This document shows, piece by piece, positions 25,187 to 30,643 of a stretch of 64,000 bases of DNA. The position numbers and the translations under genes were made by a program. Every line of letters starts with the position of its first letter. Position 1 is the stretch's first letter. Source of the stretch: Escherichia coli (GTDB taxonomy: Bacteria > Pseudomonadota > Gammaproteobacteria > Enterobacterales > Enterobacteriaceae). The DNA is taken from assembly GCF_003790525.1 (NCBI RefSeq), contig NZ_CP033635.1; one strand, 5' to 3'. Below the pieces are notes generated by a model. It was not told the DNA's origin and made no database searches. It worked only from the letters and a program-made list of their open reading frames with translations.

Positions 25187-26041
25187 TCACACCATATCCA
25201 GCGCAGTTTTTCCTTTTGGTGCCGGATATGCCTTATCCAGCATAGCTAATTCCGCTGATGAAAGTTCGACCTCAAGCACAGCCGCATTTTGTTGGACATG
25301 GGCAATCGTGGCCGCTTTTGGAATCGCCATCACACCCTGATGACTGATCACCCACGCCAACAATACTTGTGCCGCGCTGATATTGTGAGCATGTGCAATT
25401 TCGTTGACTACCGCGTTTTTTAACAGCCCATTGCGCAACCGCCCGGCCTGGGCTAACGGACTGTAAGCCATCACCGGCATCTGCTGTTGCTGGCACCAGG
25501 GAAGTAGATCGTACTCAATCCCTCGTGAACCGAGATGGTAAAGCACCTGATTAGTGGCACACTGATTCCCCCCCGGCAGCTGCCAGAGTTCCTGCATATC
25601 GGCATAATCAAGGTTAGAAACGCCCCAGCGGCGGATTTTTCCCTGGGCGATCAATTTTTCCATCGCTGCGACAGTCTCTTCAAAAGCGAAACTGCCAGAC
25701 CAGTGTAATAAGTAGAGATCGAGATAATCAGTATTGAGACGGCGTAAACTGGCTTCGCATGCATTTATCGCTTTTTGCCCGCCAGCATTCCACGGATAGA
25801 CTTTAGAGACGAGAAAGACGTTCTCACGCAGGCCGGTTAATGCTTCCCCAACCACCATTTCGGCACCGCCATCGGCATACATTTCGGCGGTATCAATGAG
25901 GGTTAAACCGAGTTCAATGCCCGCGCGTAGTGCAGCAACTTCTGTTTTACGCTGACTGGCATCTTCGCCCATATACCATGTTCCCTGCCCTATGGCTGGC
26001 AGTGAGACATCGCCACTAAATTGAATCATTTTTTGTTGCAT
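25187..26041 (-). CDS. yeaE: aldo-keto reductase (methylglyoxal reductase type)
   Basis: 284 aa from MQQKMIQF with GGGAGGAAG Shine-Dalgarno upstream; ORF-track extension rejected. Confidence 0.88.
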   Translation of the reverse strand: MQQKMIQFSGDVSLPAIGQGTWYMGEDASQRKTEVAALRAGIELGLTLIDTAEMYADGGAEMVVGEALTGLRENVFLVSKVYPWNAGGQKAINACEASLRRLNTDYLDLYLLHWSGSFAFEETVAAMEKLIAQGKIRRWGVSNLDYADMQELWQLPGGNQCATNQVLYHLGSRGIEYDLLPWCQQQQMPVMAYSPLAQAGRLRNGLLKNAVVNEIAHAHNISAAQVLLAWVISHQGVMAIPKAATIAHVQQNAAVLEVELSSAELAMLDKAYPAPKGKTALDMV

Positions 26042-26074
26042 TGCTTCCTCCCAGGTATTGCACCACCGTAATGC

Positions 26075-26099
26075 AAAACAGGGCATGACGCCCTGTTTT
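26075..26099 (-). terminator. hairpin terminator downstream of mipA
   Basis: Stem ACAGGGC / GCCCTGT flanked by A and T runs, between the mipA stop and the yeaE start region. Confidence 0.6.
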
Positions 26100-26130
26100 T
26101 ATGCACAAAATGCCCTGGAAAGATGCATTA

Positions 26131-26877
26131 TCAGAATTTGTAGGTGATCCCGGTAGAAATCAGGCCAGTCCAGGATTTATCCACCATTGGGCTGTCAGTA
26201 ACTTCATCAGACAGACGGGTGTAGCGCGCGGTACCGTAAACACTCCAGTCGCCGAGGAAGTTGTAGCTGGCGCTCAGCTCCAGGTAAGGGCTCCAGCTGT
26301 CGTTCGGGTTATAGCCACGCAGACCGCTGCGAGCGGACTCTTTGCGCGATACGCCATAATAGTATTCGTTCTGGTTTTCGCTGTTCCACTGCACACCAAT
26401 ACCCGGAGTCACGGTCAGGCCGCCGTTGGTGTAACGATACAACCAGGCCATATCCCAGACAATGCCGTTGCTGTTATCCAGGGTATCGCCAGCCAGGGTG
26501 GTACGCAGGTAACCGTACTGGGTAAAGTGAGCATAAGACAGACCAGCCATCATGGTGCTCTTACGGTCATCCAGGTGACGCATTTGGTGATCGCCACTGT
26601 CTTTAGCTTTGAAGTAAAGCGGCGACCAGTAAGCGGTAATTGAAAGTTTGTCCGTTGCGTCATTCCACAGGTAGTAACCACCACCTAAGCCACGGAACCA
26701 GAAGTTATCGCCTTCATAGTTGATTACCGGTACTGGGTAAACATCGGTATCGTAATCTTTATATGGGTGTTCAACGACACCTACGCCTGCGCCCAGGGAA
26801 AATTTACCTTCAGCGTGCGCTACGCCTGCAGACGTTGCGATAAGCACTCCAAGTGCCAGAAGTTTGAGTTTGGTCAC
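26131..26877 (-). CDS. mipA: MltA-interacting outer membrane protein (OmpV/MipA family)
   Basis: 248 aa; signal peptide ending AHA; beta-barrel-like composition with C-terminal aromatic residue; GTG start. Confidence 0.9.
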   Translation of the reverse strand: MTKLKLLALGVLIATSAGVAHAEGKFSLGAGVGVVEHPYKDYDTDVYPVPVINYEGDNFWFRGLGGGYYLWNDATDKLSITAYWSPLYFKAKDSGDHQMRHLDDRKSTMMAGLSYAHFTQYGYLRTTLAGDTLDNSNGIVWDMAWLYRYTNGGLTVTPGIGVQWNSENQNEYYYGVSRKESARSGLRGYNPNDSWSPYLELSASYNFLGDWSVYGTARYTRLSDEVTDSPMVDKSWTGLISTGITYKF

Positions 26878-27192
26878 AATTAATCATTCCTTAAACAAAT
26901 GTTTAGCGGGCGACAAAGTTTACCCGTCAATACATCGAAACCCAACCTTTTTACGTTTTCATTTTTTAAAGTAACTGTTTAATTTTCCTGACGCAGATGA
27001 CACCACGCTTACAGCCAAATGAATTTAGCGTTACCGGCAAGCCTGGTCTTTACATTAATTATGCAAAATTTATGGATGAGTTGTTGATATGCCATTGAAA
27101 TTAAGAAAGCCGTGCAGGCAAGTTTTCCATTTGCCATCTACGCTTAATTTTGAAGGTGTATCACCGGGCACGTTGTTCTCATCGTCGATAAA

Positions 27193-27209
27193 ATGGCATG
27201 AGAGTTGCT
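27193..27209 (+). promoter_or_regulatory. sigma-54 (-24/-12) promoter element for yeaG
   Basis: TGGCAT-N5-TTGCT with GG at 27195-27196 and GC at 27207-27208 (correct -24/-12 spacing), about 105 bp upstream of the yeaG ATG. Confidence 0.6.
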
Positions 27210-27312
27210 GTGTTTTAGCAAGAGACGTCGTTCAGTTTACCTCTTCCGGGAGCCTCTACTATTCATATGAACGGCTCTTAACCTGTGCTAAAAAACGAAA
27301 GGACGGCATACC

Positions 27313-29247
27313 ATGAATATATTCGATCACTATCGCCAGCGATATGAAGCTGCCAAGGACGAAGAGTTCACACTGCAGGAGTTTCTTACCACTTGTCGGC
27401 AAGATCGCAGTGCTTATGCCAACGCGGCTGAGCGGCTATTGATGGCTATTGGTGAGCCTGTCATGGTCGATACAGCCCAGGAACCCAGACTTTCTCGACT
27501 CTTTTCTAACCGGGTCATTGCACGTTATCCGGCGTTTGAAGAGTTTTACGGCATGGAAGACGCGATTGAACAGATTGTCTCTTATCTGAAACACGCGGCT
27601 CAGGGGCTGGAAGAGAAGAAACAAATCCTGTATCTGCTGGGGCCTGTGGGTGGGGGTAAATCATCGCTTGCTGAGCGACTGAAATCATTAATGCAGCTCG
27701 TGCCGATCTATGTATTAAGCGCTAACGGTGAGCGGAGCCCGGTCAACGATCATCCGTTCTGTCTTTTCAATCCGCAGGAAGATGCGCAGATTCTGGAAAA
27801 AGAGTATGGCATTCCTCGCCGTTATCTCGGCACCATCATGTCGCCGTGGGCGGCAAAACGCCTGCATGAATTTGGTGGCGATATCACTAAGTTCCGGGTA
27901 GTGAAGGTCTGGCCGTCAATTCTGCAACAAATTGCTATCGCCAAAACGGAACCCGGTGATGAGAACAACCAGGACATCTCCGCCCTGGTAGGGAAAGTCG
28001 ATATTCGTAAACTCGAACACTACGCGCAGAATGACCCGGACGCCTACGGCTATTCCGGTGCGCTGTGCCGCGCCAATCAGGGGATCATGGAATTTGTCGA
28101 GATGTTTAAAGCACCGATAAAAGTGCTGCATCCCTTGTTAACCGCCACCCAGGAAGGTAACTACAACGGGACGGAAGGTATCTCCGCCCTGCCGTTCAAC
28201 GGGATTATTCTCGCGCACTCGAACGAATCCGAATGGGTCACTTTCCGTAATAACAAAAACAACGAAGCCTTCCTCGACCGTGTTTACATCGTGAAGGTGC
28301 CGTATTGCTTGCGCATTTCCGAAGAGATCAAAATCTACGAGAAATTGCTTAATCACAGTGAATTGACTCACGCCCCCTGCGCCCCTGGCACGCTGGAAAC
28401 GCTGTCACGTTTTTCTATTCTTTCGCGTCTGAAAGAGCCAGAAAACTCCAGCATTTATTCAAAGATGCGGGTTTATGATGGTGAAAGTTTGAAAGACACT
28501 GATCCCAAAGCCAAGTCGTATCAGGAATATCGTGACTACGCCGGTGTCGATGAAGGGATGAACGGTCTGTCGACGCGTTTTGCGTTTAAGATCCTCTCCC
28601 GCGTGTTCAACTTCGATCATGTAGAAGTGGCGGCAAACCCGGTCCATCTGTTCTACGTCCTGGAACAGCAGATCGAGCGCGAGCAGTTCCCACAAGAGCA
28701 GGCAGAACGCTATCTGGAGTTCCTGAAAGGTTATCTGATCCCGAAATATGCCGAGTTTATCGGCAAAGAGATCCAGACGGCCTACCTTGAATCCTATTCC
28801 GAATATGGGCAAAACATTTTCGACCGTTATGTTACCTACGCGGATTTCTGGATTCAGGATCAGGAGTATCGCGATCCGGATACCGGGCAGTTGTTTGACC
28901 GCGAGTCTCTTAACGCCGAGCTGGAGAAAATCGAGAAACCGGCGGGGATCAGTAATCCAAAAGATTTCCGCAACGAGATTGTTAACTTCGTACTGCGCGC
29001 CAGAGCGAATAACAGCGGACGCAATCCGAACTGGACCAGCTATGAAAAACTGCGCACGGTTATTGAGAAGAAAATGTTCTCCAATACCGAGGAGCTGTTG
29101 CCGGTTATTTCGTTTAACGCCAAAACGTCAACCGACGAGCAGAAGAAACATGACGACTTTGTCGACCGTATGATGGAAAAAGGCTACACCCGTAAACAGG
29201 TGCGTTTACTGTGCGAATGGTATTTGCGCGTACGTAAATCGTCTTAA
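27313..29247 (+). CDS. yeaG: PrkA-family serine protein kinase
   Basis: 644 aa; Walker A GPVGGGKSS; PrkA-like domain organisation. Confidence 0.92.
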   Translation: MNIFDHYRQRYEAAKDEEFTLQEFLTTCRQDRSAYANAAERLLMAIGEPVMVDTAQEPRLSRLFSNRVIARYPAFEEFYGMEDAIEQIVSYLKHAAQGLEEKKQILYLLGPVGGGKSSLAERLKSLMQLVPIYVLSANGERSPVNDHPFCLFNPQEDAQILEKEYGIPRRYLGTIMSPWAAKRLHEFGGDITKFRVVKVWPSILQQIAIAKTEPGDENNQDISALVGKVDIRKLEHYAQNDPDAYGYSGALCRANQGIMEFVEMFKAPIKVLHPLLTATQEGNYNGTEGISALPFNGIILAHSNESEWVTFRNNKNNEAFLDRVYIVKVPYCLRISEEIKIYEKLLNHSELTHAPCAPGTLETLSRFSILSRLKEPENSSIYSKMRVYDGESLKDTDPKAKSYQEYRDYAGVDEGMNGLSTRFAFKILSRVFNFDHVEVAANPVHLFYVLEQQIEREQFPQEQAERYLEFLKGYLIPKYAEFIGKEIQTAYLESYSEYGQNIFDRYVTYADFWIQDQEYRDPDTGQLFDRESLNAELEKIEKPAGISNPKDFRNEIVNFVLRARANNSGRNPNWTSYEKLRTVIEKKMFSNTEELLPVISFNAKTSTDEQKKHDDFVDRMMEKGYTRKQVRLLCEWYLRVRKSS

Positions 29248-29347: not shown

Positions 29348-30643
<1,296 letters not shown>

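Follow-up and report, generated by a model that had tools for sequence, protein, structure and literature searches.

The NtrC sites of glnA lie at about −140, −108, −89, −66 and −45, and relocated glnA enhancers are said to function at kilobase distance, a finding attributed to Reitzer and Magasanik in 1986. We know of no natural kilobase-range enhancer arrangement described for the Ntr regulon. The glnAp2 promoter resembles yeaGp, the promoter of the yeaG-yeaH operon, in having a −24/−12 core that phosphorylated NtrC activates when nitrogen is limiting, and each has a tandem partner promoter, which is of the sigma-S type at yeaG and of the sigma-70 type at glnA. However, the strong NtrC sites of glnAp2 are located 100–140 bp upstream, whereas yeaG has none recognisable in the nearest ~300 bp and the only good ones lie ~1.13 kb away, beyond the neighbouring mipA gene. 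The sigma-54 promoter of relA offers a second comparison. Like yeaG, relA is controlled by NtrC without belonging to the classical nitrogen-scavenging genes, and its NtrC site is distant, spanning −838 to −649 relative to the RelA start codon (PMC4066584). The relA site was demonstrated by EMSA and tied to its promoter experimentally (PMC4066584), whereas the link between yeaG and the remote sites described here is drawn entirely from comparative genomics.

The closest described systems are yeaGp of E. coli K-12 MG1655 (OS18) and the yeaG promoter of Salmonella Typhimurium LT2 (STM1285), which share the locus, the motif ATGGCATGAGAGTTGCT and its distance from yeaG with the DNA analysed here; nothing substantial differs, except that Salmonella has lost the cluster of NtrC-box-like sites. 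OS18 was reported by Bonocora et al. 2015 as a sigma-54 ChIP-seq site with the motif ATGGCATGAGAGTTGCT, 93 nt upstream of yeaG, and was flagged as previously predicted (PMC4591121). At Salmonella yeaG, Samuels et al. 2013 observed a sigma-54 ChIP-chip site, TGGCATGAGAGTTGCTTT; in the rpoS-defective strain LT2, yeaGH showed a 2.5-fold sigma-54-dependent rise with the constitutive, enhancer-independent activator DctD250, a microarray ratio below the authors' cut-off, and a yeaG promoter-lacZ fusion was as active in an rpoN mutant as in the wild type, owing to other promoters (PMC3844500). In nitrogen-starved E. coli, Brown et al. 2014 called an NtrC ChIP-seq peak at 1864821–1864901 at yeaGH (PMC4066584), and Figueira et al. 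2015 found that yeaG mRNA rises 36-fold within 20 min of nitrogen run-out (PMC4664914). Two adjacent promoters of yeaGH, dependent on E-sigma54 and E-sigma38, respectively, were described by Switzer et al. 2018 (PMC6299236; likewise PMC10954441). A gSELEX study with RpoN holoenzyme and NtrC never mentions yeaG (PMC8743547), and our literature search returned no direct E. coli yeaG expression data in rpoN or ntrC (glnG) mutants.

The window, by which we mean the whole 64-kb stretch of E. coli DNA that was analysed, carries at this locus the annotated genes msrB, gapA, yeaD, yeaE (minus strand), mipA (minus strand), yeaG (plus strand), yeaH (plus strand) and cdgI. The aldo/keto reductase gene yeaE (Pfam) occupies 25187–26041, and mipA (26131–26877; MipA in Pfam) starts at 26877 and ends with a stop codon at 26131–26133. 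On the opposite strand, yeaG (27313–29247, ATG at 27313) encodes a PrkA-family AAA+/Ser-Thr protein kinase of 644 aa with the Pfam domains AAA_PrkA and PrkA, and the second gene of the operon, yeaH (29360–30643), encodes a DUF444/YeaH-YhbH family protein of 427 aa (Pfam). Both the description of YeaG as a PrkA-type kinase paired with a DUF444 protein and the length of 435 bp given to the divergent mipA-yeaG spacer in the initial annotation agree with these assignments and coordinates. Around the motif, 1.3 kb of sequence matches E. coli SMS-3-5 with 100% identity and occurs in 5425 of 5426 complete genomes of E. coli.

The sigma-54 promoter core of yeaGH, TGGCATGAGAGTTGCT, is located at 27194–27209 on the plus strand, where the −24 element TGGCAT is followed by the 5-nt spacer GAGAG and the −12 element TTGCT. 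The initial annotation had placed it at 27193–27209; the sequence stands, whereas the start does not, position 27193 being the preceding A. The GG (27195–27196) and GC (27207–27208) dinucleotides are exactly 10 nt apart, which bears out the canonical GG-N10-GC spacing ascribed to the site. The core has the same orientation as yeaG and lies with its 3' end 103 nt and its 5' end 119 nt from the yeaG ATG, the former close to the ~105 bp originally estimated. It is identical to the 17-mer ATGGCATGAGAGTTGCT of OS18 and provides the only exact match to TGGCAY-N5-TTGCW on either strand of the window, which contains 613 instances of the bare GG-N10-GC. With 0.20 exact matches expected per window by chance and at least one present in 18 of 100 shuffles, the bare motif is only weakly improbable. 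It is nevertheless more than a chance match, because it resides in an intergenic spacer, is co-oriented with yeaG and is conserved at the orthologous position. Another sigma-54-like sequence, TGGCACTTGGAGTGCT, lies on the minus strand inside mipA (26843–26858); it was set aside, being absent from the published sigma-54 ChIP list and formed by non-conserved codons of the signal peptide.

The conservation of the promoter was followed through 80 yeaG loci, fetched from contigs with one genome per species, and through further loci added via MipA homologues. Among 28 Enterobacterales mipA-yeaG loci, 24 carry the sigma-54 motif 94–154 nt before the yeaG ATG (242 nt in Brenneria). The genera with an orthologous motif comprise Escherichia, Citrobacter, Pseudescherichia, Pluralibacter, Superficieibacter, Enterobacter and Kosakonia as well as Erwinia, Serratia, Brenneria, Rahnella, Pantoea, Dickeya and Tatumella, and Salmonella, C. 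koseri, Kluyvera and Scandinavium join them among the loci reached via MipA homologues; conservation spans about 25 Enterobacterales genera (more than 20). Within the alignment TGGCA and GTTGCT are invariant, whereas the 5-nt spacer between them drifts (GAGAG, AAGGG, ACGGG, ACAGG, AATGG); such a pattern, read from the aligned sequences, is what selection acting on the −24 and −12 elements leaves behind. Complete E. coli genomes retain the element in 5424 of 5426 cases. The motif is missing or degraded in Yersinia, Edwardsiella and one Pseudocitrobacter lineage, with GGGGAT present in Pseudocitrobacter and G50, and the −24 element of Leclercia bears a 1-bp deletion (CTGCAC). In the yeaG upstream regions of Vibrionaceae, Shewanella, Aeromonas and Alteromonadales, motif scores fall within the null distribution.

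At −24/−12 promoters, transcription starts 12 nt past the GC, which in the window would place the sigma-54 start at 27220 on the plus strand, 93 nt upstream of the yeaG ATG. This position agrees with the start near 27220 proposed in the initial annotation, with the distance of 93 nt given for OS18 (PMC4591121) and with the −93 end at which a published yeaG 5'UTR fusion began (PMC10954441); no mapped 5' end at 27220 was encountered in the literature search. The resulting 93-nt 5' UTR (27220–27312) contains the conserved blocks TTCCGGGAG, CCTCTACTATTCATATGAACGGCTCT and CCTGTGCT and the Shine-Dalgarno sequence AAAGGACGG, as seen in the alignment. The near-invariant CCTGTGCT (27282–27289), the most conserved block of the leader, coincides with the pairing site of the small RNA SdsR, CCTGTGCTAA (27282–27291), which extends from −31 to −22 relative to the AUG (PMC10954441). 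The published SdsR pairing explains this conserved block, and a structured RNA in the leader was rejected both on this ground and because an Rfam scan of 25900–27450 yielded no family at E≤1.

Upstream of the −24 element by ~55 bp, the plus strand carries TCTACGCTTAA (27137–27147), a sigma-S-type extended −10 and a candidate for the upstream promoter of a tandem pair. The sequence matches KCTAYRCTTAA, which we take to be the sigma-S extended −10 consensus. A start directed by this element would lie near 27151–27153, preceding the sigma-54 start by about 68 nt. Its core, CTACGCTTAA, is identical in 8 of 12 Enterobacteriaceae alignment rows and is replaced by CTACGCTTTA in Superficieibacter, Enterobacter MGH24, E. 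asburiae and Enterobacter sp. Ag1, and a sigma-S-type −10 is recognisable in the aligned sequences of Erwinia, Serratia and Dickeya. In Salmonella, yeaG is very strongly sigma-S-dependent and ranks with the genes that rely on sigma-S most, with 5730 reads in the wild type and 26 in the rpoS deletion strain (PMC4330354). From its position and its fit to the consensus, we infer that TCTACGCTTAA is probably the −10 element of the sigma-S member of the tandem promoters described in the literature. A further conserved block in the spacer, GAGTTRTTGATATGYCATTGAAA (27079–27101), overlaps a weak sigma-70-like −35 for mipA on the minus strand; comparison by eye with the consensus sequences of CRP, IHF and ArcA was unconvincing for all three.

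Taken as a whole, the feature is very probably yeaGp, the promoter through which sigma-54 (RpoN) and its activator NtrC drive the E. coli yeaG-yeaH operon. The sigma-54 promoter that the initial annotation assigned to yeaG-yeaH is the one found by ChIP-seq as OS18 (PMC4591121) and by ChIP-chip in Salmonella (PMC3844500), and the NtrC-type activator that it implied is matched by the NtrC enrichment at the yeaGH promoter (PMC4066584) and by the 36-fold induction on nitrogen run-out (PMC4664914). The motif, its control by sigma-54 and NtrC and its sigma-S partner are already published, and the promoter itself adds nothing new.

The placement of the NtrC sites is another matter. NtrC boxes were scored, out of 14, against the 17-bp dyad TGCACCA-N3-TGGTGCA. 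The initial annotation had located no enhancer sites upstream of the promoter and had suggested searching 26880–27190; our scan was run over the longer interval 26880–27320 and found nothing above 8/14, with weak matches at 27049 and 27113, such that no site of quality is present in the spacer. No NtrC box is recognisable within about 300 bp of the promoter, and across 24 related spacers and those of 5 further genera there is no positionally conserved match of at least 10/14. The weak matches were rejected as enhancers, as their position is not conserved, and the IHF consensus WATCAANNNNTTR does not occur in the mipA-yeaG spacer. The ChIP-seq peak of Brown et al. 2014, which maps to about 27202–27282 of the window, was likewise discarded as a guide to the enhancer, since in the same study the nac, astC and ddpX peaks, too, either overlie the sigma-54 motif or lie a short way downstream of it, and not upstream, where an enhancer is to be expected.

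Immediately beyond the end of mipA, a cluster of NtrC-box-like dyads occupies 26059–26127 and constitutes a candidate remote enhancer, with its site c 1135 bp upstream from the −24 element. Read on the minus strand, it begins four bases beyond the stop codon with site a, TGCATCTTTCCAGGGCA (26127–26111; 9/14), continues with half-site b, TGCATAAAAACAGGGCG (26105–26089; 8/14), and ends with site c, TGCATTACGGTGGTGCA (26075–26059), which at 12/14 is the best NtrC-box match in the 64-kb window. The sites wrap around the hairpin of the intrinsic mipA terminator, CAGGGC-GTCAT-GCCCTG followed by TTTT (26075–26095, minus strand), between half-site b and site c. The spacings within the cluster are fixed at 22 and 30 bp, also in genera that lack yeaE, and the distance from a to c, 51–53 bp or about five helical turns, is maintained in all genera with the cluster. 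With intervals of 22, 30 and 52 bp, or ~2, 3 and 5 turns of the helix, the dyads lie on the same helical face and are phased much as at glnAp2. In most Enterobacterales the layout consists of a full dyad, 5 bp, TGCA-A-tract-hairpin-T-tract and a second full dyad, with the half-sites kept across genera and the central bases variable. In the fetched DNA, matches of at least 10/14 arise at a background rate of 5.5e-4 per position, which amounts to 0.064 for each region; two or three such matches are present at many loci.

The cluster is conserved from Escherichia to Serratia and Dickeya, and is strongest in Serratia, where TGCACAATATTTGTGCA and TGCACATCTGTGGTGCA both score 12/14 and the boxes reach 12, 10 and 12 of 14. 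There yeaE is absent and the cluster resides between the convergent genes yeaD and mipA, without a gene to regulate, an arrangement shared by Enterobacter MGH24, C. koseri, RIT691, Ag1 and Tatumella. The cluster is found in 20 of 24 loci with a yeaG sigma-54 promoter, or 21 of 24 when Citrobacter FP75 is counted, in which it is displaced by 200 bp and abuts yeaE instead of mipA; it is found in none of the 4 loci without the promoter. This co-occurrence, among loci that are not phylogenetically independent, is at most suggestive. The two elements also occur apart: Salmonella, C. youngae, P. vulneris and Pantoea Mb-10 have the promoter without the cluster, and Leclercia has the cluster with the defective −24. 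In Salmonella, the cluster past mipA was lost after insertion of a radical-SAM gene, and a mipA paralogue away from yeaG has neither cluster nor sigma-54 promoter.

NtrC binding in this region has so far been attributed to yeaE. An NtrC gSELEX peak at MG1655 coordinate 1,863,654, which maps to about 26035 of the window and coincides with the cluster, was assigned to yeaE, a "yeaE" probe amplified with primers in the 3' end of mipA and the 5' end of yeaE, and so covering the cluster, was shifted by NtrC in EMSA, and yeaE rose 3.1-fold on nitrogen depletion in an rpoN- and ntrC-dependent manner (PMC8743547). A ChIP-exo and RNA-seq study also lists yeaE as a direct NtrC target, in this case as the sole gene down-regulated by NtrC, which implies that NtrC is bound in vivo at the yeaE site (PMC9853098). 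The sign of the NtrC effect on yeaE is opposite in the two reports. A sigma-54 promoter for yeaE is hard to place, because only 17 nt separate site c from the yeaE ATG, this gap contains no correctly spaced GG/GC (the nearest pairs are mis-spaced), and the published list of sigma-54 ChIP sites has none at mipA or yeaE; such a promoter was therefore rejected.

Doubt about the motif itself can largely be laid aside. That it should be a chance match to a short consensus, as the shuffled windows allow, has a negligible probability, being refuted by the retention of the motif at its orthologous place in over 20 genera and by in vivo sigma-54 occupancy published in two species (PMC4591121, PMC3844500). 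Far-fetched, albeit less so, is the idea of a silent sigma-54 binding site, with nitrogen induction passing wholly through the sigma-S promoter by an NtrC-relA-ppGpp-RpoS route. Many sigma-54 ChIP sites in E. coli are indeed non-productive, as the title and theme of PMC4591121 state, NtrC activates relA (PMC4664914), and both the sigma-S dependence of yeaG (5730 versus 26 reads; PMC4330354) and the rpoN-independent Salmonella reporter (PMC3844500) would fit such a route. Yet the motif lies in an intergenic spacer with the correct orientation and a typical distance to its gene, purifying selection has held −24/−12 across the whole order while the spacer drifted, induction reaches 36-fold within 20 min of nitrogen run-out (PMC4664914), the enhancer-independent activator raised yeaGH expression 2.5-fold in LT2, which is defective in rpoS (PMC3844500), and NtrC was cross-linked at the yeaG promoter (PMC4066584).

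Given that yeaGp is a genuine promoter, NtrC may reach it in two ways. It could act from nearby sites that are weak and depart from the consensus, or from solution when its concentration is high, with the cluster serving yeaE only, as a repressing operator or an activator site, and we put this at slightly under an even chance. NtrC ChIP-seq yielded a peak at the yeaG promoter and listed none at the cluster (PMC4066584), the 8/14 matches at 27049 and 27113 are present in the spacer, two papers credit the cluster to yeaE (PMC8743547, PMC9853098), the promoter is kept without the cluster in the four lineages headed by Salmonella, and in Citrobacter FP75 the cluster has stayed beside yeaE rather than mipA. 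Against this, the positions of the proximal matches are not conserved, the peaks of that study, to judge from where those for nac, astC and ddpX fall relative to the sigma-54 motif, are not enhancer locators, the cluster is best preserved in Serratia, which, like the five other lineages with this arrangement, lacks yeaE, the 17 nt before the yeaE ATG offer neither room nor a match for a sigma-54 promoter, and the two papers contradict each other on the sign of the yeaE effect. Alternatively, NtrC bound to the cluster ~1.13 kb upstream may activate the yeaG promoter across mipA, in place of a proximal enhancer; we advance this tentatively, as a possibility that falls somewhat short of an even chance. 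It is supported by the conservation of the cluster, its helical phasing, its independence from yeaE and its co-occurrence with the promoter, and is weakened by the four lineages that have the promoter but no cluster and by the lack of a reported ChIP-seq peak there.

For activation of yeaGp by NtrC, we envisage the following course of events. E-sigma54 would form a closed complex on the −24 TGGCAT and −12 TTGCT elements, which it would be unable to open alone. On nitrogen run-out, phosphorylated NtrC (GlnG) would assemble on the DNA into an ATP-hydrolysing oligomer and, reaching sigma-54 through DNA looping, would drive formation of the open complex. Transcription from ~27220 would then yield an mRNA with a 93-nt leader, the translation of which would later be damped by SdsR, and the sigma-S promoter ~68 bp upstream (−10 at 27137–27147) would add a general-stress input to yeaGH.

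The only good NtrC sites near yeaG, 1.1 kb away, have been credited in the literature to yeaE, with conflicting results. Should the remote cluster prove to be the activating site, it would represent a natural kilobase-range bacterial enhancer that acts across a gene, and would predict that Salmonella, having lost the cluster, no longer has yeaGH under direct NtrC control. Placing the NtrC site would clarify the wiring of one of the most strongly induced operons of the Ntr response, whose contribution to survival of prolonged nitrogen starvation is being actively investigated.

The highest-scoring match to the NtrC consensus in the entire window, TGCATTACGGTGGTGCA (12 of 14 positions of TGCACCA-N3-TGGTGCA), lies within a cluster of NtrC-box dyads at 26059-26127, immediately after the mipA stop codon and around the mipA terminator. 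Comparison of the loci reveals that the 22/30-bp spacing of this cluster is kept from Escherichia through Serratia and Dickeya, and that the cluster is also present in genera that lack yeaE. The cluster is the NtrC-bound 'yeaE' site of the literature, for which the two studies report effects of NtrC on yeaE of opposite sign (PMC8743547, PMC9853098). Lineage-specific changes were seen at this locus. Salmonella (L082, 3347-4939) has lost the cluster, and a radical-SAM/SPASM gene has been inserted there between mipA and yeaE. In the assembly of Leclercia adecarboxylata (L086), the cluster is retained and the -24 element carries a 1-bp deletion (CTGCAC).

The MG1655 coordinates of published NtrC ChIP-seq peaks (PMC4066584, Table 1) were compared with those of sigma-54 motifs (PMC4591121, Table). 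At yeaG, nac, astC, ddpX and argT, the peak windows fall on the sigma-54 motif or within ~40 bp of it, with four of the five located 12-41 bp downstream of the motif and that of argT 11 bp upstream. Since NtrC enhancers are expected to reside further upstream, the peak calls are a poor guide to where NtrC contacts the DNA.

Two further sigma-54-like elements were observed. The first, TGACACCACGCTTACA (26998-27013), is situated ~200 bp upstream of the yeaG sigma-54 promoter proper and bears GA and AC where GG and GC would be expected. The block that holds it is conserved among Enterobacteriaceae, and a canonical version of the element is found only in Kluyvera (L084), as TGGCAG-N5-TTGCA at -317 from the yeaG ATG. 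The other, TGGCACTTGGAGTGCT (26843-26858, minus strand), resides within the signal-peptide codons of mipA with the correct GG-N10-GC spacing and is not among the sigma-54 ChIP-seq sites published for E. coli.

A near-perfect sigma-S-type extended -10, TCTACGCTTAA (27137-27147), precedes the -24 element of the sigma-54 promoter by approximately 55 bp. It is conserved across Enterobacteriaceae and probably represents the published yeaGH sigma-S promoter. We found no mapped start site for that promoter in the literature. A strongly conserved block, GAGTTGTTGATATGCCATTGAAA (27079-27101), overlaps a weak sigma-70-like -35 (TCAACA) of mipA on the minus strand. Its core, GT.ATTGA.AT..C....AA, is retained as far as Serratia, Dickeya and Pantoea, and in most genera the block contains an ATTGA-N6-ATTGA direct repeat; by-eye comparison with the CRP, IHF and ArcA consensus sequences yielded no assignment of a regulator.

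In Scandinavium (L087, 2170-2200), the yeaG promoter and leader are intact, and phage-like genes replace yeaG from the start codon onwards. Within the yeaG leader, conservation is highest at CCTGTGCTAA (27282-27291), the site at which, according to published work, the sRNA SdsR pairs and lowers YeaG translation late in nitrogen starvation (PMC10954441).
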